DNA of 32,000 bases, taken from the NCBI RefSeq assembly GCF_000981785.2, contig NZ_CP011304.1:2520001-2552000 (forward strand), written 5' to 3'. This document shows positions 2,838 through 25,457 of the stretch, in pieces. This DNA comes from Microcystis aeruginosa NIES-2549. Lineage in GTDB: Bacteria; Cyanobacteriota; Cyanobacteriia; Cyanobacteriales; Microcystaceae. Every line of letters starts with the position of its first letter. Positions within the stretch are counted from its first letter, which is position 1. The notes under the pieces are model-generated. The model had not been told where the DNA came from. It did not search any database and saw only the letters and a program-made list of their open reading frames with translations. The translations under genes and the position numbers were made by a program.

Positions 2838-4519
2838 GGGTTTGCTGAATAATGGTAAAAACCTTACAGGAAAGGGCTTTTAGCTTGATTGAGAGCTTCC
2901 CAAATGCACTTAAATCTGCTAGAATCTCTTAAAACCCTTGCATCACCCTTGCATCTTCTCTAATTAGTGCTAATGTACCGTAAAAGCGAGTTACCCTCAA
3001 CCCCACCAGAAAACTTCGAGCTGCCCTTTGAGGGGAAATTATCCCAAGACAATCGTTGGGTAATTATGGCCAACCTCATTCCCTGGTCAGAATTTGAAGC
3101 GGAATACGCATCACTTTTTTCAGAAGAAATGGGCACACCCGCCAAAACATTCAGGACAGCACTCGGAGCATTAATTATTAAAGAAAAATTAGGAACAAGC
3201 GATAGAGAAACGGTAGAACAAATCAAAGAAAATCCTTATTTACAATACTTCTTGGGGTTTTCATCCTACAGCAATGAACCCCGGTTTGAAGCGTCAATGT
3301 TGGTTCACTTTCGAGAAAGAATCACTCTGGAACTAATTAATAAAGTGAATCGCTTTATGGTCAAAAATTCGAGAGAAATAAAAGAAGAAGAAAACACCGA
3401 AAAAAAGTTAGAGAGCGAAACCCAAAGTCAACCAGAAAATCGAGGTAAATTAATTTTAGATGCCAGTTGTGCGCCCGCAGATATTAGTTATCCTACGGAT
3501 TTAAACCTGTTAAATCAAGGAAGAAAACAAACCGAAAAAATTATTGATATTCTCTATGAAACTTTAAAAGGAAAACTTGTTCAAAAACCGAGAACCTATC
3601 GTCTTCTAGCCAGAAAAAGTTATTTAGAAGTAGCGAAAAAAAGAAAACCTACCGTCAAACAAAGACGAAAAGCTCTGAAAAGACAACTGCAATATCTGAA
3701 AAGAAATCTCGACCATATTGAACAACTTTTAGCAGAAGGAGCCTCTCTACAAAGCTTGAAAAAAAGAGACTATAAACTGTTGTTAGTAGTCACAGAAGTT
3801 TATCGTCAACAACTCTGGATGTACCAAAATAACAAACAGAGTATTGAAGACAGAATTGTCAGCTTAACTCAACCCCACATCCGTCCGATAGTCAGAGGAA
3901 AAGCTGGAAAACCCGTAGAATTTGGGGCTAAATTCTCAGCAAGCTGTATAGATGGTTACATATTTTTAGACCGAATTAGTTGGGATAACTTTAATGAATC
4001 AGGAGATTTAAAAGCACAAATAGAAGCTTATTATGACTATACAGGATACTATCCAGAATCAGTTCATGTGGACAAAATTTATCGAACCAGAGAAAACCGA
4101 GCTTGGTGTAAAGAAAGGGGAATCAGAATCAGTGGTCCCCCATTAGGAAGACCAGCCAAAAATGTTAGTAAAGAACAAAAGAAACAAGCTACCGATGATG
4201 AGAGGATTCGGAATTGTATAGAGGGCAAATTTGGACAGGGGAAAAGAAGATTTAGCTTAGGTAAAGTGATGGCTAAACTTCCTCATACTTCCTTTTCAGC
4301 GATTGCTATTACTTTTTTAGTCATGAATCTTTCTAACCTGTTGAGGCAGGTTTTTTGGGCTTTTTTATGTCTGAAATGGAAAAACAGCACTTTTTCTCGG
4401 TCAATGATTAGGATAAGTTATAACTTAAAAATTAATCAACAACTAAAGCTTATGCTTGTAGCTAAGTGAAATCATTGATTAAGAGACCTGTACTTTTCAA
4501 TGACTTTTTCAGCAAACCC
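2838..4519 (+). mobile_element. IS5/IS1182-like insertion sequence (about 1.68 kb) with 12-14 bp terminal inverted repeats
   Basis: GGGTTTGCTGAA at 2838-2849 and its reverse complement TTCAGCAAACCC at 4508-4519 bracket a single DDE transposase ORF. TACTTA occurs immediately outside both ends (2832-2837 and 4520-4525), which could be a target duplication. Confidence 0.6.
2973..4469 (+). CDS. IS5-family-like DDE transposase (InsH/DUF772-type N-terminal domain)
   Basis: ORF of about 498 aa from ATG 2973 (the track starts at GTG 2967). The N-terminus (NRWVIMANLIPWSEFEAEYASLF, FRTALGALIIKEKLGTSDRETVEQIKENPYLQYFLGF) matches the transposase N-terminal domain of IS5/IS1182-type elements. The C-terminal half has DDE-like segments (LDASCAPADISYPTD, VHVDKIY). 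Confidence 0.8.
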   Translation: MYRKSELPSTPPENFELPFEGKLSQDNRWVIMANLIPWSEFEAEYASLFSEEMGTPAKTFRTALGALIIKEKLGTSDRETVEQIKENPYLQYFLGFSSYSNEPRFEASMLVHFRERITLELINKVNRFMVKNSREIKEEENTEKKLESETQSQPENRGKLILDASCAPADISYPTDLNLLNQGRKQTEKIIDILYETLKGKLVQKPRTYRLLARKSYLEVAKKRKPTVKQRRKALKRQLQYLKRNLDHIEQLLAEGASLQSLKKRDYKLLLVVTEVYRQQLWMYQNNKQSIEDRIVSLTQPHIRPIVRGKAGKPVEFGAKFSASCIDGYIFLDRISWDNFNESGDLKAQIEAYYDYTGYYPESVHVDKIYRTRENRAWCKERGIRISGPPLGRPAKNVSKEQKKQATDDERIRNCIEGKFGQGKRRFSLGKVMAKLPHTSFSAIAITFLVMNLSNLLRQVFWAFLCLKWKNSTFSRSMIRISYNLKINQQLKLMLVAK

Positions 4520-6163: not shown

Positions 6164-6910
6164 TTAGTTAATCTGGTTCTTTAAATATTTCAGTTCATCA
6201 AGGGTTAAAAAACGGTAATCACCCAAGGGTAAGGGGGAATTATTACCAGAGTTTAGTTGAATACGACCGATGGCACTGCGATGAAGTTTCAGGACGCGAT
6301 GGCCCAATTCTTCGGCTACAGAGCGAATCTGCCGATTTCTTCCCTCCACTAAAATAACTTCTAGTAGGGTTTTTTGGTCGGTTTGCTTGAGTATCTCAAC
6401 CTGTGCGGGTAAGGTTTTTTTTCCCTCTAAGAGGATACCTTCTCGCCAACGCTGGAGAGCAAGTCTATCAATCGCACCATCTAGCCAAACCCGATAGGTT
6501 TTGGGCAAATGATAACGGGGATGGGTGAGGGTGAGGGTCAGTTGACCGTCGTTGGTGAGGAGTAAAGCCCCAGTGGTGTTGATGTCCAACCTGCCTACGG
6601 GATGTAACCCTGTCTCGCTGGCGAGGGAGTCGGGCAAAAGGTCGATTACTGTCGGCCGGTTTTGTGGATCCTTACAGGTAGAAACCACGCCAATGGGTTT
6701 GTTGATCAGTATATACAATCTTTTGGGACGATTGGCCGGTTCAATTTTTTTTCCGTCTATCTCTAGGTGATCTTTTTCCGGGTCGGCTTTTTCTCCTAAC
6801 TGCACGATTTTGCCATTCCGTCTCACCCGGCCGGCTACGATCATCTCCTCCGCCCTTCTTCGGGAGGCAATTCCCCACTGGGCAAGGATTTTCTGGACTC
6901 TCTCCGCCAT
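6164..6910 (-). CDS. pseudouridine synthase, RsuA/RluB family (S4 domain plus catalytic domain)
   Basis: 248-aa ORF. It has an N-terminal S4-like region ([30 protein letters not shown]), the catalytic motif [17 protein letters not shown] and a C-terminal EGRNRQIR. Confidence 0.9.
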
Positions 6911-7059
6911 TTTTTTTTAGTTTTTAACCCTTTCTATCTCCTATTATAGGCATCCTAAAAGGGTTTTTTCGCCCAAATAGTGAAGAAAAACCGAATATCT
7001 CTGGCTGCCTCTTTGATTTTTTTTCTTTGAAAACTTCTCAAAAAAAGAGGAGTAATCCC

Positions 7060-7088
7060 TTGACTTGGGCGGCGGCTTCGGTTATACT
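7060..7088 (+). promoter_or_regulatory. near-consensus sigma70-type promoter, repeat unit 1
   Basis: TTGACT (7060-7065), a 17-nt spacer, then TATACT (7083-7088). An A-tract lies about 13 nt upstream of the -35 and could act as an UP element. Confidence 0.55.
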
Positions 7089-7253
7089 TTTCTTATAATG
7101 GGAATCTGTGCCTTTTTAGTTAGACTCTAACACTCCATTATATATAAAGTCTTATAAAAATATTATGGCAAAAAGCCCTGAAAAAAGCAAGCAAAATTTT
7201 GCCTCTTTGATTTTTTTCTTTGAAAACTTCTCAAAAAAAAGAGGAGTGACCCC

Positions 7254-7282
7254 TTGACTTGGGCGGCGGCTTCGGTTATACT
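7254..7282 (+). promoter_or_regulatory. near-consensus sigma70-type promoter, repeat unit 2
   Basis: TTGACT at 7254-7259, a 17-nt spacer, then TATACT at 7277-7282. The sequence is identical to unit 1. Confidence 0.55.
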
Positions 7283-7447
7283 TTTCTTATAATGGGGATT
7301 TGTGCATTTTTAGTTAGACTCCAACACTCGATTATATGTAAAGTCTTATAAAAATATTATGGCAAAAAGCCCTGAAAAAAGCAAGCAAAATTTTGCCTCT
7401 TTGATTTTTTTCTTTGAAAACTTCTCAAAAAAAAGAGGAGTGACCCC

Positions 7448-7476
7448 TTGACTTGGGCGGCGGCTTCGGTTATACT
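7448..7476 (+). promoter_or_regulatory. near-consensus sigma70-type promoter, repeat unit 3
   Basis: TTGACT at 7448-7453, a 17-nt spacer, then TATACT at 7471-7476. Confidence 0.55.
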
Positions 7477-7641
7477 TTTCTTATAATGGGAATCTTTGCC
7501 TTTTTAGTTAGACTCTAACACTCCATTATATATAAAGTCTTATAAAAATATTATGGCAAAAAGCCCTGAAAAAAGCAAGCAAAATTTTGCCTCTTTGATT
7601 TTTTTCTTTGAAAACTTCTCAAAAAAAAGAGGAGTGACCCC

Positions 7642-7670
7642 TTGACTTGGGCGGCGGCTTCGGTTATACT
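7642..7670 (+). promoter_or_regulatory. near-consensus sigma70-type promoter, repeat unit 4
   Basis: TTGACT at 7642-7647, a 17-nt spacer, then TATACT at 7665-7670. Confidence 0.55.
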
Positions 7671-7969
7671 TTTCTTATAATGGGAATCTTTGCCTTTTTA
7701 GTTAGACTCTAACACTCCATTATATATAAAGTCTTATAAAAATATTATGGCAAAAAGCCCTGAAAAAAGCAAGCAAAATTTTGCCGACAATTGTTAAAAA
7801 AGTCGGGCTAGTTTTGCTTACGGGGGGATATGACTTTAAACGGGTTATTTCTCGGTTATCCAAGCGGTTGAGAGAAGAAAGAGATCGGCAATTGATGGAA
7901 GAAATTGTAAATGAATAGAGAAAATCATGACTAATACATTTATCTGTGTTGATTTTAGTTTTATAAATT

Positions 7970-8066
7970 CTTGTAGGGTGAGTGTTTGCGGCGATAATCT
8001 CTGACAAAAAAACAAATTAATAATCGGCCGTAACGCCCAAATTTATCATCAAATTGGTGCGTTACG
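7970..8066 (+). repeat. partial copy of a MITE-like repeat (left flank of the hicBA cassette)
   Basis: CTTGTAGGGTGAGTGTTTGCGGCGATAATCTCTGACAAAAAAACAAATTAATAATC... aligns in direct orientation with 8550-8650. It ends at GGTGCGTTACG, just before the hicA stop codon. Confidence 0.7.
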
Positions 8067-8069
8067 TTG

Positions 8070-8276
8070 TCAAATATCATCTTCAGTTAATCCTGAATCT
8101 TTGAGAATACCTTTTAATGTTCCTATCGGTAAATCTCGATTTCCATGAGTTGGTATAACAATAATTGCAGAAACATTTTCTTTGATATAGATATAATGAC
8201 TTCCTTTAATTCTTGCCAATTTCCAGCCAAATCTTTCAACGACTTTACATAATTTTTTACCTGAGATTGACTTCAT
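8070..8276 (-). CDS. hicA: HicA-family toxin (mRNA interferase)
   Basis: 68-aa ORF with the HicA pattern (GKKLCKVVERFGW...KGSHYIY...IPTHGNRDLPIGTLKGILKDSGL). It overlaps the upstream hicB by 4 nt (8273-8276). Confidence 0.85.
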   Translation of the reverse strand: MKSISGKKLCKVVERFGWKLARIKGSHYIYIKENVSAIIVIPTHGNRDLPIGTLKGILKDSGLTEDDI

Positions 8277-8479
8277 ACAGAAATCTCCACTAATTGCTGA
8301 TTCTCTTTTCGATCAAGTAATTTTTTTTCATGAGAAACTTCTAACCAGCCTTCTATTGCCTCTTTAACCATGACCATCAAATCATCATAATTTTCTGCCC
8401 AAGTATGACAACCAGACAAAGCTGGTACAGTTGCACACCAAACATCATCTTCTTGCCAGACAACCACTTTGATATTCAT
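8273..8479 (-). CDS. hicB: HicB-family antitoxin (UPF0150-type fold)
   Basis: 68-aa ORF. Its sequence (VVVWQEDDVWCATVPALSGCHTWAENYDDLMVMVKEAIEGWLEV) matches the HicB N-terminal domain pattern. It sits immediately upstream of hicA and is translationally coupled to it. Confidence 0.8.
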   Translation of the reverse strand: MNIKVVVWQEDDVWCATVPALSGCHTWAENYDDLMVMVKEAIEGWLEVSHEKKLLDRKENQQLVEISV

Positions 8480-8552
8480 AATAAATATTTTTTATTGACT
8501 GAGATTTATTTTAATAATAACATAAACTTGTTTTTTTGTATAAGCCGATCTT

Positions 8553-8668
8553 GTAGGGTGGGTGTTTGCATCGATAATCTCTGACAAAAAAAACAATTAA
8601 TAATCCGCACCCCACGCAGCAACTTAATTATTAAATGGGTGCGTTAGCCAAAGCGTAACGCACCCTAC
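8553..8668 (+). repeat. MITE-like element with GTAGGGTG...CACCCTAC termini and an internal 10-bp stem hairpin (right flank of hicBA)
   Basis: GTAGGGTG at 8553-8560 is inverted at 8661-8668. GGGTGCGTTA (8637-8646) pairs with TAACGCACCC (8656-8665). The first roughly 100 bp are a direct repeat of 7972-8066. Confidence 0.6.
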
Positions 8669-8862: not shown

Positions 8863-9882
8863 TTAATTCTTTGTACCAATGCCATCACACAAATGTCTAT
8901 CTTCCTCCCTGACATTAATATTATTCTGCAAATAAACCCGCACCCAATCGCAACTACGCCCCATTAAAGCATCTAAATCCCAGCCATTGTTTCCATTCCA
9001 GAGTTTGATAGTCTTGTCCCAACTACCGCTCACCAAAGTCTTGCCGTCGGGACTAAAATTAACGCTTTCGACATAGCCCTCATGCCCCTTGAGGGTGCGG
9101 ATTTCTTTGCCTGTTTTTACATTCCAGAGTTTGATAGTCTTGTCAACACTACCGCTCACCAATGTCTTGCCGTCGGGACTAAAATTAACGCTATAGACAT
9201 AGCTATCATGCCCCTTGAGGGTGCGGATTTCTTTGCCTGTTTCTACATTCCAGAGTTTGATAGTCTTGTCAACACTACCGCTCACCAAAGTCTTGCCGTC
9301 GGGACTAAAATTAACGCTTATGACAGAGTCATCATGCCCCTTGAGGGTGTGGAGTTTTTCGCCTGTTTTTACTTTCCAGAGTATGATAGTTTTGTCATCA
9401 CTACCGCTCACCAATGTCTTGCCGTCGGGACTAAAATTAACGCTATGGACATAGCTACCATGCCCTTCTAAGCGATTGCGTTCACTTTTGCGGTTGAGAA
9501 GTTCCTGTAAGGCATTCATCACCTCCTTGTCGGATGCCTGCTGCTTTTGTAGAGTTTTTCCTGCCTTAATCGCTAAGACGAAAGCATCTAATTCTTTTCC
9601 TTTATCAAACAAAGACAAGGAAGAAAACCCGCGAGCATTTGTCAGATTAAGTTCCGCTTGTTGTGTTTTTTGCCAAGCCATCAAACCCAATCCCGTACTA
9701 ATCACCACCGCCACCAAGGAACCCGCCGCAATCCCCCAAGCGGTTCTAATTTCGCGCCGCCTGCGGGCTGCTTCGGCTTGTTTTATCCGTTCTCGTTCCT
9801 GAAGACTCCGCTTAATAAAATCCTGTTCACTTTGGCTAATATCTTCGGTTCTTCCGAACTTACACTGTAGAAAATTCCTCAA
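8863..9882 (-). CDS. TM segment plus WD40-repeat fragment; C-terminal half of a STAND NTPase-WD40 gene split by a MITE
   Basis: The 339-aa ORF begins at a TTG inside the inserted element. It contains one hydrophobic helix (AWGIAAGSLVAVVISTGLGLMAW) and four 42-aa WD40 repeats (GH..V.SVNFSPDGKTLVSGS.DKTIKLW). It becomes in frame with 9961..11433 once the element is removed. Confidence 0.85.
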   Translation of the reverse strand: MRNFLQCKFGRTEDISQSEQDFIKRSLQERERIKQAEAARRRREIRTAWGIAAGSLVAVVISTGLGLMAWQKTQQAELNLTNARGFSSLSLFDKGKELDAFVLAIKAGKTLQKQQASDKEVMNALQELLNRKSERNRLEGHGSYVHSVNFSPDGKTLVSGSDDKTIILWKVKTGEKLHTLKGHDDSVISVNFSPDGKTLVSGSVDKTIKLWNVETGKEIRTLKGHDSYVYSVNFSPDGKTLVSGSVDKTIKLWNVKTGKEIRTLKGHEGYVESVNFSPDGKTLVSGSWDKTIKLWNGNNGWDLDALMGRSCDWVRVYLQNNINVREEDRHLCDGIGTKN

Positions 9883-10009
9883 GCTCCCTCTCTGCCCAGC
9901 AAGGCTCTAAAGTTGATAAATATCAATCTAACAAAAACTCAAAAACTTAGTATACAAGCTTTACAAGCACAAGTTGTTGATAGTTTTACATGACAGGTTC
10001 GGTAGAGCC
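9847..10009. mobile_element. 163-bp MITE-like insertion with imperfect terminal inverted repeats and an 8-bp target site duplication
   Basis: ATATCTTC occurs at 9839-9846 and again at 10010-10017. The ends GGTTCTTCCGAAC... and ...GTTCGGTAGAGCC are inverted (12 of the first 15 nt match). The element has no coding capacity. Confidence 0.8.
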
Positions 10010-11433
10010 ATATCTTCTGGGCGTTTCTTCAGTTGTTCTTCCGCCTCCGCCAACGCCGCCCCGCGCAACAATGAGCCTTCATCCCCCTGCGTCTGCTGCC
10101 ATTGCCCCATCGCTCCCCGCAAACGCTCTTGCCAAGCGCGAAAAACCCTGTCTGTGTCCATCCAGCCCCGCAATTCCCCCCAATTGCGAATCAGTGCTTC
10201 ATGCACCACTTCCACCGTCTCCACCTGTGCCTCTTCACTGCGACTGGTGACAACTAAACGCGCATCCGCCAGTTGTTTCACCAGCGCCCAATTTACCGCC
10301 CCTAATTCCGCTTTTGTCGCCAGCCGCCGCGTATCTTCTGTGCCTTCCCCTGGGCGTACCAATTGGATGAAAATGCGCCGCATCTGTTCCCGTTGCGCCT
10401 CACTCAGCTTGTCATATTCTTCATTGGCATGGGGGGCCAAAGCACCCTGCACTTGGCCAATTTCTGTATATGCCAGATGGGTTAACTGTTGGCCCTGTCG
10501 CCGCTGCCACAATTCCGTTAAGGCAAACTCTAGTAATGGCAAATTCCCCGGCTCACTCTCCACATCATCGAGGATGCGCTCCACCAGTCCCGCTTCAAAT
10601 GTCACCCCCAATTTTTGCGCCGGTTTTTCAATAACTTCTGTGAGTTCTTCTCGGTTCATCGGCCCCAATTTCAAGTCAGTATTTTGTAAGACATCGGCAA
10701 AGGTACGATAGGAAAGAGCATTCCCCAAGAAATCGGCCCGCATAGTTAATACCAACACCATTCCTACCCTTTCAAAGGGGAATGTAGTTAATTTATCGAG
10801 AAAATTACGGCGGATTGTTTCATCAGGACAGAGGGTATAAAGTTCCTCAAATTGGTCGGCAATTAGCAGTACCCGTTCACTGGGATAATTGTGTTGGATT
10901 TGGGCAAAAACATCAGCTAAAGGAATGTCGCCATCACGCAAATAATTGGCTAACTGACGCGCTTGGGCGAGGCGGTCTGTCTCATTTAAATTAGTTGTAT
11001 AAAGGGGAACTAATGCCAAAGCTAGGGCATGAAAAGGGTCAGAACCGGGACGAAAATGGGTAAACTGCCAGTGACCTTCTTGTTGCAATTTAGGGACTAA
11101 TCCCGCAAAAACTACCGAGGATTTACCACTTCCCGACGCACCTAATAGGGGGATAAAATTACGGGTTTGGGTTTCCTGAAATAGGATTTTAATAAAGCTT
11201 TTGCGCCCAAAAAAGTATTCTGCATCTCCTGGCCCAAAATGAAACAAGCCACGATAGGGACAGGGCAGTTTATCATCGGCAACATCGGCAGAATCAGCAG
11301 GGGCTATTCTTGCTTCTTCTCGATAATAGTAATTGGTAATCGTGATGGTTGCATTGCCAGTCCCAGAGGTAGCAGCATATTGAGCTTTTGTAATATTTTG
11401 TTGAATTTCGCTTGGTTCTGACATATCAACCAT
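9961..11433 (-). CDS. STAND-type P-loop NTPase fragment (N-terminal half of the split gene) with an N-terminal G/N/S/T-rich motif
   Basis: 490-aa ORF. It has Walker A (LLGASGSGKSS), a Walker B-like segment (VLLIADQFEELY) and a helical arm. The last 16 residues (MALPNLSCKTINNLCL) are encoded by the inserted element. Confidence 0.85.
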   Translation of the reverse strand: MVDMSEPSEIQQNITKAQYAATSGTGNATITITNYYYREEARIAPADSADVADDKLPCPYRGLFHFGPGDAEYFFGRKSFIKILFQETQTRNFIPLLGASGSGKSSVVFAGLVPKLQQEGHWQFTHFRPGSDPFHALALALVPLYTTNLNETDRLAQARQLANYLRDGDIPLADVFAQIQHNYPSERVLLIADQFEELYTLCPDETIRRNFLDKLTTFPFERVGMVLVLTMRADFLGNALSYRTFADVLQNTDLKLGPMNREELTEVIEKPAQKLGVTFEAGLVERILDDVESEPGNLPLLEFALTELWQRRQGQQLTHLAYTEIGQVQGALAPHANEEYDKLSEAQREQMRRIFIQLVRPGEGTEDTRRLATKAELGAVNWALVKQLADARLVVTSRSEEAQVETVEVVHEALIRNWGELRGWMDTDRVFRAWQERLRGAMGQWQQTQGDEGSLLRGAALAEAEEQLKKRPEDMALPNLSCKTINNLCL

Positions 11434-15049: not shown

Positions 15050-15116
15050 GATCCCCCCTGCCCCCCTTGATAAGGGGGGTGCCGATCCCCCCTTAATCCC
15101 CCCTTGATAAGGGTGG
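15050..15116. repeat. C/G-run palindromic repeat cluster (GATCCCCCC and CCCCCCTTGATAAGGGGGG units)
   Basis: CCCCCCTTGATAAGGGGGG at 15061-15079 (6-bp stem, 7-nt loop) recurs in degenerate form at 15098-15116. GATCCCCCC occurs at 15050 and 15084. The cluster lies between the kinase gene 3' end and the pacL 5' region. Confidence 0.7.
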
Positions 15117-15156
15117 TGTCTGAAAGTTTTTAACATCTACCTACTTAGTCAACAGC

Positions 15157-21346: not shown

Positions 21347-21390
21347 GTGGGGTGTGGGGTGTGGGGTGTGGGGTGTGGGGTGTGGGGTGT
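21347..21390. repeat. heptanucleotide tandem repeat (GTGGGGT) x 6
   Basis: Six contiguous perfect GTGGGGT copies plus GT, located in the leuA-sigA intergenic region. Confidence 0.95.
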
Positions 21391-21402
21391 TTTCTCAGTG
21401 AA

Positions 21403-21435
21403 CTGATAACTGATAACTGATAACTGATAACTGAC
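21403..21435. repeat. heptanucleotide tandem repeat (CTGATAA) x 4 (STRR-like)
   Basis: Four perfect CTGATAA copies plus a partial one, 12 nt downstream of the GTGGGGT array. Confidence 0.95.
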
Positions 21436-23604: not shown

Positions 23605-23660
23605 GTGATAACTGATAACTGATAACTGATAACTGATAACTGATAACTGATAACTGATAT
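23605..23660. repeat. heptanucleotide tandem repeat (CTGATAA), 6 perfect plus 2 degenerate copies
   Basis: GTGATAA, then (CTGATAA) x 6, then CTGATAT, ending immediately upstream of the ATG at 23667. Confidence 0.95.
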
Positions 23661-23666
23661 AAGATT

Positions 23667-25214
23667 ATGTCTTTAGTTGCATCTTTACTCGATCGAGTAT
23701 CTCCTCAGAGTTTACAACAATTGCGAGCCAGTGATCGAGCTTGGCAAGCTTTGCGTTTAGAAAATCCGCTTATTCCCACGGTAATTAATCAAAGTCAAGA
23801 ATCTTTAGGAGATACGGATTTTGATCTAGTTATTGCCGGGGGAACTTTGGGAATTTTCATCGGGGCTGCTTTACAAACCAGGGGCTGGCGTGTGGCATTA
23901 TTAGAAAGAGGTATTCTGCGCGGTCGTGAGCAGGAGTGGAATATTTCACGTTTAGAATTAAGCAGTTTTTTAGAGTTAGATTTATTGACCGAAGCTGAAT
24001 TGAATCAAGCGATAGCGACAGAATATAATCCTGCTAGGGTGGGATTTTATCAAGGTTATGAGCTTTGGGTCAGAGATATTTTAAATATTGGTGTTAATCC
24101 GGTTTATTTGCTAGAGACTTTAAAAACGAAGTTTTTAGAAGCGGGAGGAAAGTTATTAGAAAATTCGGGATTTAGTGGGGCGATTATTCATACCGATGGA
24201 GTAATGGTTAAAACGGGAGAAGTGACTTTAAAAACCCGTTTATTAATCGATGCCATGGGTCATTTTTCAGCAATTGCAAAACAGGCAAGAAAAGGAGAAA
24301 AACCCGATGGAGTTTGTTTAGTGGTGGGTAGTTGCGGTCAGGGTTTTCCCAGTAATGAAACTGGTGATTTGATTTATTCTTTTACCCCAATCTTGCACCA
24401 ATGTCAATACTTTTGGGAAGCATTTCCCGCTAGGGATGGTCGGACAACTTATTTATTTACCTATCTTGATACCCATCCCGATCGCTTTAGTTTAGAATTT
24501 TTGATGGAGGAGTATTTAAGATTACTGCCGGAGTATCAAAAGGTGGATTTAGAAGCGGTAAACTTTCAGCGTTTTCTAGCGGGTTTTTTCCCTGCCTATC
24601 GTCAAAGTCCTTTAAAAATGCCTTGGTCAAGAATTCTGGCAGTGGGAGATAGTAGCGGTAGTCAATCTCCGGTAAGTTTTGGTGGTTTTGGGGCAATGGT
24701 CAGACATTTAAAAAGGCTAACTTTCGCCATCGAGGAAGCTTTACAAATTGATGCTTTAAACCGAGAAGATTTAGCTATTTTACAACCCTATCAACCGAAT
24801 ATATCGGTAACTTGGCTATTTCAAAAAACCATGAGTGTTGCCATGTCTGCTAACCCTAATCCCAATCAAATTAATGACTTAATGAGTGGAGTTTTTCGGG
24901 TAATGGACAAGTTAGGAGATGAGGTCTTAAAACCATTTTTACAGGATGTGGTGCAGTTTTCTTCCCTCTCAAAAACTTTGCCTTTGGTTAATCCTCAATT
25001 AGTTTTACCGATGATTCCACAAGTGGGTATCAGTCCTTTTATCGATTGGACGGGACATTATTTGAATTTAGCTTTGTATAGTGGTTTATATCCCTTGGCA
25101 GCCACCTTAAAACCTGTTTTAGAAAAGTTACCCGACAGGCAAAAATATCTTTATCATCGTTATTTAGACAGTTGGAAATATGGCTCTGGGGGAGATTTTA
25201 TCAGTAATCAGTGA
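23667..25214 (+). CDS. FAD/NAD(P)-binding oxidoreductase, CruA/CruP lycopene-cyclase-like
   Basis: 515-aa ORF with a Rossmann dinucleotide motif (FDLVIAGGTLGIFIGAAL...VALLERG) and REQEWNISRLEL, which I associate with the cyanobacterial CruA/CruP family. The product assignment comes from recall, not from a search. Confidence 0.5.
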   Translation: MSLVASLLDRVSPQSLQQLRASDRAWQALRLENPLIPTVINQSQESLGDTDFDLVIAGGTLGIFIGAALQTRGWRVALLERGILRGREQEWNISRLELSSFLELDLLTEAELNQAIATEYNPARVGFYQGYELWVRDILNIGVNPVYLLETLKTKFLEAGGKLLENSGFSGAIIHTDGVMVKTGEVTLKTRLLIDAMGHFSAIAKQARKGEKPDGVCLVVGSCGQGFPSNETGDLIYSFTPILHQCQYFWEAFPARDGRTTYLFTYLDTHPDRFSLEFLMEEYLRLLPEYQKVDLEAVNFQRFLAGFFPAYRQSPLKMPWSRILAVGDSSGSQSPVSFGGFGAMVRHLKRLTFAIEEALQIDALNREDLAILQPYQPNISVTWLFQKTMSVAMSANPNPNQINDLMSGVFRVMDKLGDEVLKPFLQDVVQFSSLSKTLPLVNPQLVLPMIPQVGISPFIDWTGHYLNLALYSGLYPLAATLKPVLEKLPDRQKYLYHRYLDSWKYGSGGDFISNQ

Positions 25215-25256
25215 TCAGTGATCAGTAAACAGTGAACAGTGAACTGATTACTGATA
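25196..25256. repeat. degenerate heptamer array (CAGTGAT / CAGTGAA / CTGATTA variants)
   Basis: ATCAGTAATCAGTGATCAGTGATCAGTAAACAGTGAACAGTGAACTGATTACTGATA. It overlaps the stop of the preceding CDS. Confidence 0.8.
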
Positions 25257-25426
25257 GGGTGCATCTCTTATTGGTGACATTCTCTCACATATTGGTGAGC
25301 AGCAGAAGTTATTCCAAGAGGGCGAATGCAATTCGCCCCTACAATAATATTATCGCGTCAATGGTAGGGGCGCACTGCGTGCGCCCAAATGTAATATAGA
25401 TATTTCTACAAAATTGAGATGCACCC
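25257..25426. mobile_element. 170-bp MITE-like or structured element with perfect 11-bp terminal inverted repeats, embedded in a heptamer array
   Basis: GGGTGCATCTC (25257-25267) pairs with GAGATGCACCC (25416-25426). Internal GC-rich hairpins are GGGCGAAT-GCA-ATTCGCCC, CCCCTAC...GTAGGGG and GGGCGCAC-TGC-GTGCGCCC. Confidence 0.6.
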
Positions 25427-25429
25427 CAT

Positions 25430-25457
25430 CTGATAACTGATAACTGATAACTGATTT
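25430..25457. repeat. heptanucleotide tandem repeat (CTGATAA) x 3 plus a degenerate copy
   Basis: CTGATAACTGATAACTGATAACTGATTT, abutting the 3' end of the minus-strand CDS at 25456. Confidence 0.9.

Follow-up and report, generated by a model that had tools for sequence, protein, structure and literature searches.

Tandem arrays in which every repeat carries a promoter and a small RNA (sRNA) gene have been documented in cyanobacteria, namely the NsiR1 array (Ionescu et al. 2010) and the repeats of Trichodesmium (PMC6596454). The NsiR1 array belongs to heterocyst-forming cyanobacteria, in which it is located upstream of hetF and controlled by NtcA and HetR. The tandem repeats of Trichodesmium erythraeum (Pfreundt et al. 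2014) measure 736–973 bp and give transcripts of about 250 nt (PMC6596454). The Yfr2 sRNAs have very strong promoters and a copy number of one to nine, and are sometimes fused to a downstream mRNA (PMC6596454, PMC2662882). What defines them is an unpaired 5′ motif that is conserved, together with a long, bulged stem that carries a 12-nt loop (PMC2662882). Here we describe four direct repeats of 194 bp, each with a consensus-like promoter, in a 32-kb stretch of the genome of Microcystis aeruginosa NIES-2549 (contig NZ_CP011304.1, positions 2,520,001 to 2,552,000; the whole stretch is referred to as the window and all coordinates are counted from its first letter). A sequence-only reading of this DNA had likened the repeats to the NsiR1 array of Nostoc, a precedent that the literature bears out (PMC6596454), and had proposed either an array of sRNAs or the amplified promoter or leader of a small gene. 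With a little more confidence than doubt, we read the unit as a so far unrecognised Microcystis sRNA gene, probably amplified fourfold in this strain by unequal recombination. Microcystis is a unicellular genus without heterocysts that causes toxic freshwater blooms. Its regulatory RNAs are almost unstudied: beyond an anti-fur antisense RNA and some homologues of Synechocystis sRNAs known from prediction, our literature search gave nothing, and the present element was not described in the literature searched.

Tandem Repeats Finder reported one array at 7006–7785 (period 194, 4.0 copies, 97% matches, zero indels), in agreement with the four units noticed earlier. The main features of the unit are as follows.

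7007–7782, plus strand: array of four head-to-tail 194-bp units (7007–7200, 7201–7394, 7395–7588, 7589–7782)
7060–7088 in unit 1 (7254–7282, 7448–7476 and 7642–7670 in units 2 to 4), plus strand: sigma70-type promoter found by scan, with −35 TTGACT, a 17-nt GC-rich spacer and −10 TATACT
7095–7203 in unit 1 (7289–7397, 7483–7591, 7677–7785), plus strand: predicted transcribed core of 109 nt, from ATAATGG to TTTTGCC
7095–7141, plus strand: inverted repeat ATAATGGG (7095–7102) / TCCATTAT (7134–7141), a possible 8-bp 5′ stem with a 31-nt loop in the RNAalifold consensus
7110–7131 in unit 1 (7304–7325, 7498–7519, 7692–7713), plus strand: hypervariable block of 22 nt, core columns 16–37 (+16 to +37)
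7145–7203, plus strand: near-invariant 3′ portion of the core, first AU-rich TAAAGTCTTATAAAAATATTAT, then the hairpin region GCAAGCAAAATTTTGC
7783–7819, plus strand: terminal hairpin GCCGAC...GTCGGGC with TAGTTTTGCTT behind it, which probably serves the last unit, and single units elsewhere, as intrinsic terminator

Core columns are numbered from the A of ATAATGG, 7 nt after the −10 hexamer, and the core ends at TTTTGCC. At the junction between units AAAATTTTGCC is followed directly by TCTTTGATTTT, with a TGCC microhomology at both unit ends. Units 3 and 4 are identical, and unit 1 differs chiefly in its 5′ part (T8/A7 runs against T7/A8; AGTAATCCC against AGTGACCCC). The clustered differences already noticed in unit 2 amount to 7 positions relative to units 3 and 4, all inside +9 to +50 of the predicted start and all polymorphic among strains as well. 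Two smaller motifs had been pointed out in every unit. The inverted repeat GGCAAAA...TTTTGCC is present (7167–7173 and 7197–7203 in unit 1) and is followed by a T-rich run. The palindrome GTTAGACTCTAAC (GTTAGA-C-TCTAAC, 7119–7131) is there too, inside the hypervariable block, but it belongs to the allele of the window strain and is absent from other Microcystis, so that it is not a conserved operator.

The promoter is the most constant element. There are exactly four occurrences of the 29-mer TTGACTTGGGCGGCGGCTTCGGTTATACT, all free of mismatches (starts 7060, 7254, 7448 and 7642; none of 100 shuffles matched), so the invariant TTGACT-N17-TATACT claimed from the letters holds in every unit, and a promoter scan returned the same four sites, each with 10 of 12 consensus positions. 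The hexamers are close to TTGACA/TATAAT and their 17-nt gap falls within the 16–18 nt of a sigma70-type (−35/−10) promoter. At about −55 to −49, the position of an upstream promoter (UP) element, stands an A tract, which is A8 as described in units 2–4 but A7 in unit 1. Transcription is predicted to start at A7095, 7 nt past the −10. All intact Microcystis copies have this promoter unchanged, spacer included; changes were seen only in the cut-short units of two loci (L006 and L007; loci are given by such numbers throughout).

The unit resembles the described systems in organisation and departs from them in sequence. In the region 6500–8500, Rfam gave no family at E ≤ 10 except chance matches far below the gathering scores, a search of the whole window at gathering thresholds likewise returned chance matches only, and no transfer RNA or transfer-messenger RNA was found. 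With NsiR1 it shares direct tandem repeats in a cyanobacterial intergenic region, each with a promoter and a short non-coding transcript (predicted for the Microcystis unit). However, no sequence or structure similarity was found (no Rfam match), and it is not a member of the NsiR1 family. The differences extend to its position beside an RluB-like gene rather than upstream of hetF, to its plain −35/−10 promoter with a canonical −35 instead of an NtcA box, and to its copy number, since the unit is usually single and the array a strain polymorphism. The Trichodesmium erythraeum repeats are likewise highly similar to each other and each gives an sRNA of unknown function (putative in Microcystis), but they and their transcripts are far longer than the 194-bp unit, a comparison made by Rfam absence only. 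Yfr2 offers a parallel in abundant-type sRNA genes with very strong promoters and variable copy number, which the Microcystis unit would putatively match; the latter has neither the 5′ motif nor the 12-nt loop of Yfr2, folding in the consensus into an 8-bp stem with a 31-nt variable loop, and again has no Rfam match.

The gene next to the array provides a fixed point for comparing strains.

6164–6910, minus strand: RluB-like pseudouridine synthase with S4 and PseudoU_synth_2 domains, divergent neighbour of the array and syntenic anchor in all Microcystis loci

We call it RluB-like on account of these two domains; the units do point away from it, as had been stated, and its protein is 95–100% identical to proteins of 12 Microcystis species representatives. 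Of these 12, 8 have an intact unit in the corresponding position, pointing away from the rluB-like gene (BLAST and visual inspection), with one copy in six (L002, L003, L005, L009, L012, L013) and two in L004 and L008. The remaining four (L006, L007, L010, L011) have a unit cut short by unrelated rearrangements, with break points that are all different (two before the −35, one inside the −10 and one beyond core column 50); the locus, which borders a variable island, is a hot spot of rearrangement. An exact-match metagenome scan with a promoter 22-mer added 20 contigs, all of the rluB-like locus, among which L082 has two units and L088 at least three. The copy-number variation among strains that the earlier reading had asked about thus runs through 1 (the usual number), 2, at least 3 and 4, the window being the largest so far.

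Every array (window, L004, L008, L082, L088) has the same junction, and the single-copy unit is flanked by TGCC on both sides, which points to duplication at the 4-nt microhomology followed by unequal crossing-over. Judged from these sequences, the ancestral and commonest state is the single copy and the window array is a strain-specific amplification. An nhmmer search with a 255-nt model recovered every Microcystis copy among the loci examined and found no further copies elsewhere in the window or in the flanks of related loci, and no homologue at the syntenic sites of other cyanobacteria (Hydrococcus, Chroococcus, Snowella, Moorena, Okeania and others). The unit is apparently confined to Microcystis, as far as syntenic loci and the exact-match metagenome scan go. 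Nothing pointed to a phage origin: phage records gave no real match and the promoter 22-mer was absent from viral contigs. Three viral-contig matches to a 22-mer were rejected as chance AT-rich matches in unrelated sequence.

The distribution of variation along the unit is very uneven. Nucleotide diversity (pi), computed across 25 loci, takes the following values.

Promoter, 35 nt with its GC-rich 17-nt spacer: 0.004
Core columns 51–109 (the 3′ 59 nt): 0.018
5′ part of the unit: 0.043
Intergenic DNA flanking rluB: 0.064
Third codon positions of rluB: 0.089
Core columns 16–37 (the hypervariable block): 0.35

Across Microcystis species, the diversity of the promoter and the 3′ part (0.004–0.018) is therefore 5- to 20-fold below that of synonymous sites (0.089), a conservation above the neutral level that comes without a conserved reading frame. 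Between them lies the hypervariable block, which diverges about four times faster than synonymous sites; it is the most unusual feature of the unit, and the earlier reading had not noticed it. Columns 24–28, directly after a T-run, hold all four bases, and columns 16, 17, 30 and 31 are fully linked and define two allele classes. Units within one array may belong to different classes (L082) or differ strongly (L088). The variable-block allele of the window, taken as a 23-mer, had no exact match in 185,579 species genomes. The length of the core is fixed all the same, at exactly 109 nt with zero indels in all 30 distinct variants. A fast block inside slow sequence is an unusual signature, for which target co-evolution, antisense specificity and a mutational hot spot are candidate explanations. 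A diversity-generating retroelement fits poorly, since the block varies as linked allele classes and not as scattered A-site changes, and the 32-kb window and the flanks of related loci contain no template-repeat copy of the unit.

No open reading frame (ORF) accounts for this conservation. One candidate is a short frame that begins 3 nt past the predicted start.

7098–7157, plus strand: 19-codon frame with ATG at 7098–7100, shortened to 10 codons (TAA) in units 1, 3 and 4

Among the window units, only unit 2 (7292–7351) has it at full length (MGICAFLVRLQHSIICKVL). It is intact in 23 of the 30 variants, has a premature stop in five (the three window units included) and has lost its start in two (ATG to ATC); at least three of the nonsense alleles are independent. 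Stop avoidance is not significant (5 stops observed against 4.2 ± 1.3 under column shuffling), and the best-conserved part of the unit lies beyond the frame; on these grounds a conserved peptide is not supported. Another ORF, of 30 codons, lies within the units; just 5 of the 30 variants have an ATG as its first codon, the others ATT or ATC, and it is not on record. Finally, by our reading of the sequences, a frame with GTG, CTG or TTG start that runs through the terminator is shifted between strains by a 1-nt indel (GGGGGGAT against GGATGAT). We conclude from the sequences that the unit is not primarily protein-coding, since every frame is interrupted or startless in some strains.

In the RNAalifold consensus of the predicted RNA, columns 1–8 pair with columns 40–47 around the 31-nt loop, and hairpins follow in the 3′ part. 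The 5′ stem shows one compensatory pair (G6–C42 to C–G in two sequences, L088b and L090, with four G–G intermediates) and a G–U pair that becomes A–U or G–C in three sequences, while one sequence breaks a pair. The terminal hairpin is conserved in all loci together with its T-run, and puts a hairpin and T-run about 150 nt downstream of the promoter. Folding 7677–7822 (146 nt, from the predicted start of the last unit to just past the T-run) gave −32.3 kcal/mol and z = −3.06, mainly owing to the long stem around GCCGAC...GTCGGGC with its T-run. Of the three variant alleles of this stem, GTCGAGC breaks a pair, whereas GTTGGGC and GTCGGGT keep it only as G–U on the plus strand, which favours a plus-strand RNA. 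The terminator scan missed this hairpin because of its 13-nt loop.

An invariant consensus-like promoter, a conserved putative terminator, strong conservation, the lack of a conserved ORF and fixed synteny together suggest a genus-specific sRNA gene. Each 194-bp unit would be one copy of a conserved intergenic transcription unit, whose strong sigma70-type promoter, with an A tract in the UP position, would drive a short non-coding RNA from about A7095. This RNA would begin with a stem (AUAAUGGG / UCCAUUAU) closing a U-rich loop of 31 nt, the central 22 nt of which are hypervariable between strains and units, and would continue with an invariant AU-rich single-stranded stretch and the 3′ hairpins. 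The AU-rich stretch, lying between the 5′ stem and the 3′ hairpins, is a candidate interaction surface for a trans-acting RNA. In the last or only copy the hairpin and U-run would terminate an RNA of about 125 nt; in internal copies transcription would either stop some 115–125 nt from the start, at a weaker hairpin and T-run, or continue into the next unit. From one ancestral copy, unequal homologous recombination at the junction shared with other strains would have produced the four of the window strain. Four identical promoters would probably raise the RNA dose, and unit 2 would add a second variable-loop allele. The sRNA array of the earlier reading survives in part: the comparative data fit a tandemly repeated unit of promoter and short non-coding transcript, but not a dedicated multi-gene locus like NsiR1. 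If the unit is transcribed, it would count as a genus-specific sRNA gene whose promoter is among the closest to consensus in the region, and the natural series of 0, 1, 2, at least 3 and 4 copies would amount to a ready-made dosage experiment; if it is not, the array is merely a tandem duplication beside a toxin-antitoxin island.

Several observations weigh against this sRNA gene. The start, the ends and the transcribed strand of the putative RNA are predictions. Covariation in the 5′ stem is weak (one pair, two cells; 18–19 of 500 shuffles reach the score), the variable block has no conserved inner hairpin and many alleles have no stable hairpin. A single internal unit folds no better than shuffles (z = −1.2) and the scan called no plus-strand terminator inside the array, the internal GGCAAAA...TTTTGCC hairpin included, so that internal copies may read through. 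The 4 of 12 species representatives without an intact unit indicate that it is dispensable. The invariance of the 17-nt spacer is not accounted for by the promoter alone, nor does a simple free loop explain the fixed 109-nt length next to a hypervariable block. Within the loci examined, nothing complementary to the variable block rose above shuffled controls and no target was found. The fixed length, the hypervariable block and the invariant spacer are thus left over, and keep other models alive.

One reading goes further. The fixed-length 22-nt block of the RNA, or of a sense/antisense pair, might be a specificity determinant under diversifying selection, and arrays such as L082, L088 and the window with its unit 2 might then collect specificities. 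We offer this as a speculative idea with a small chance of being right. It would make the unit a strain-individual recognition module, aimed, for instance, at a phage, at a mobile element or at the mRNA of a cognate toxin.

Among the rivals to an sRNA gene, the one that survives best, unlikely as we take it to be, is a cis-acting promoter with a long 5′ leader of a downstream cassette, ancestrally a toxin-antitoxin operon, in which the four copies would be an incidental duplication. About 400 nt downstream, on the same strand, L002, L003, L009 and L013 do carry an antitoxin/PIN pair, and a different pair takes this position in L004, L008 and L012. In addition, the conserved non-coding block extends about 190 nt past the terminal hairpin, and with Yfr2b and Yfr2c Synechocystis offers examples of an sRNA whose start site can also be that of a downstream mRNA (PMC2662882). 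On the other hand, the unit stays constant while the downstream genes vary between strains, two hairpin and T-run elements stand between the unit and the pair, and the latter is preceded by a palindromic region of its own that contains a TATAAT. The window and L005 have lost the pair, and the genes that come next (hicAB) face the unit in convergent orientation; the unit was nevertheless kept, and in the window amplified. What is left of the pair in the window is a short remnant.

7869–7965, plus strand: remnant of a PIN-associated toxin-antitoxin pair, comprising the last 15–16 codons of the antitoxin (7869–7918) and the first 13 codons of the PIN gene (7927–7965)

This remnant is 95.9% identical to L013 (BLASTN). 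The earlier reading, which proposed the promoter or leader of a small gene as one possibility, had also noted a 45-codon ORF behind the last unit. Such an ORF exists (7781–7918), beginning in the terminal hairpin, crossing the conserved non-coding sequence and ending in REERDRQLMEEIVNE, but it did not hold up as a gene. In L002, L003 and L013 the codons matching REERDRQLMEEIVNE are the end of an intact antitoxin of 83 aa, which stands just upstream of a PIN-domain protein and makes up a VapBC-like pair with it. The window and L005 pass from GGTTATCCAAGCGGT directly to TGAGAGAAGAAAG, so most of the antitoxin gene is gone and 13 PIN codons are left. The 45-codon ORF is hence a chimera, a deletion scar in which non-coding sequence is fused to an antitoxin C-terminus; it has no Pfam match, and the assemblies list no protein of this kind. 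As the start of the 30-codon ORF is not conserved either, the idea of an amplified promoter or leader of a small gene is not supported. Downstream of its intact antitoxin/PIN pair, L013 has a second copy of the segment 7798–7901 of the window, 99% identical, and recombination between such linkers is a likely route of the window deletion. This recurring linker (AAAGTCGGGC...GGTTATCCAAGCGGT; reverse-complement coordinates 8007–8110 in L013, 99%) also recurs in L002, and toxin-antitoxin cassettes at this locus seem to be bounded by repeated linkers.

Somewhat more doubtful still is a sense/antisense module, possibly a decaying pair of the type I toxin-antitoxin kind. The plus-strand RNA would carry the nearly leaderless 19-codon ORF, and a minus-strand RNA would run from a TATAAT back across the variable block and the plus-strand promoter to end at a hairpin followed by T8, the hypervariable block being the overlap that gives pair specificity, in the manner of the tandem Sib/Ibs repeats of E. 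coli. A minus-strand hairpin of this kind is present.

7239–7255 (also 7433–7449 and 7627–7643), minus strand: weak terminator-like hairpin AAGGGGTCACTCCTCTT with T8, overlapping the A tract just upstream of the −35 (units 2–4)

It could end an antisense transcript or shield rluB, and lies about 110 nt from the minus-strand TATAAT, which is the reverse complement of core columns 43–48; the two might delimit an antisense RNA of about 110 nt. Several features favour this model: the absence of indels in 30 variants despite 35% pairwise divergence in the variable block, the very different blocks inside one array (L082, L088), a promoter spacer as invariant as though it were transcribed on the other strand, and a frame of fixed length that is intact in 23 variants, with nonsense alleles as expected of a toxin gene under inactivation. 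However, the TATAAT has no acceptable −35 upstream, the promoter scan gave no site on the minus strand of the units, and shuffled sequences fold as well as the putative antisense RNA does (z = +0.8). The 19-codon ORF has no Shine-Dalgarno sequence, its avoidance of stops is not significant, the strongest conservation of the unit lies downstream of it, and its peptide (MGICLSFLECHHSIIYKVL) has charged and polar residues and no clear transmembrane helix. In the Sib/Ibs (QUAD) family of E. coli, which is of the type I toxin-antitoxin kind, the toxins (Ibs) are strongly hydrophobic and promoters have been mapped for the antisense RNAs (Sib). The units of this family, of about 150–200 bp, sometimes in tandem, each with an ORF of about 19 codons and with short variable regions that distinguish the copies, are similar in layout to those of Microcystis. 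The latter differ in a peptide that is not clearly membrane-like and is often interrupted, in having no antisense promoter that passes the scan, and in matching neither Sib nor any other antitoxin RNA in Rfam.

We regard as improbable that the product is a micro-protein of 19 aa, translated from a nearly leaderless mRNA, with the hypervariable block reflecting diversifying selection on residues 5–12. The ATG is present in 28 of the 30 variants, the TAA stop is invariant, the length is fixed, and the hot spot includes some synonymous alternatives (TTG, TTA and CTG for Leu; TTT and TTC for Phe). Against this stand the premature stops, which affect three of the four window units, the two lost starts, a stop count equal to the column-shuffle expectation, the missing ribosome-binding site and a maximum of conservation outside the ORF. 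Least probable of all is a silent, satellite-like duplication of intergenic DNA with neither transcript nor function: tandem duplications with microhomology junctions do arise spontaneously, the locus borders a rearrangement-prone island and four species representatives have no intact unit, but neutral DNA would not show a promoter and 3′ part 5- to 20-fold below synonymous diversity, nor a consensus-like promoter unchanged in almost every copy (the cut-short units of L006 and L007 being the exceptions).

The surroundings of the array offer further signs of rearrangement. In the linker downstream of the unit, L004 and L009 have two different insertions of about 130–150 bp at the same TTA (GGTTA followed by TCCAAGCGG); one of them is G/C-rich and palindromic, and both look like miniature mobile elements that used one target site. 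In the window, a HicA/HicB pair (8070–8479, minus strand) lies between direct repeats of about 100 nt (7969–8064 and 8549–8646, 81–90% identical), and since it is absent from L013 at the same position it looks like an inserted cassette. On the other side of rluB, a DDE transposase ORF (2967–4469; DDE_Tnp_1_2, DUF772) occupies a segment (2838–4494) that is missing from L002, L005, L009 and L013, and which by this comparison is a strain-specific insertion sequence.

The window holds other repeats as well. A 126-bp tandem repeat (8990–9465, 3.8 copies, 90%) lies inside a 339-aa ORF (8863–9882, minus strand) and encodes WD40-like units (…SPDGKTLVSGS.DKTIKLWN…), with a 490-aa ORF upstream at 9961–11433. 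A repeat of 37 nt in nearly two copies (GATCCCCCCTTAGCCCCCCTTGATAAGGGGGGTGCC) is found at 15050–15118, and a similar sequence in L010. Finally, intergenic spacers (21347–21434, 23606–23659 and 25200–25455) hold several perfect heptanucleotide tandem repeats (GTGGGGT, AACTGAT, TGATAAC, CTGATAA and related ones).

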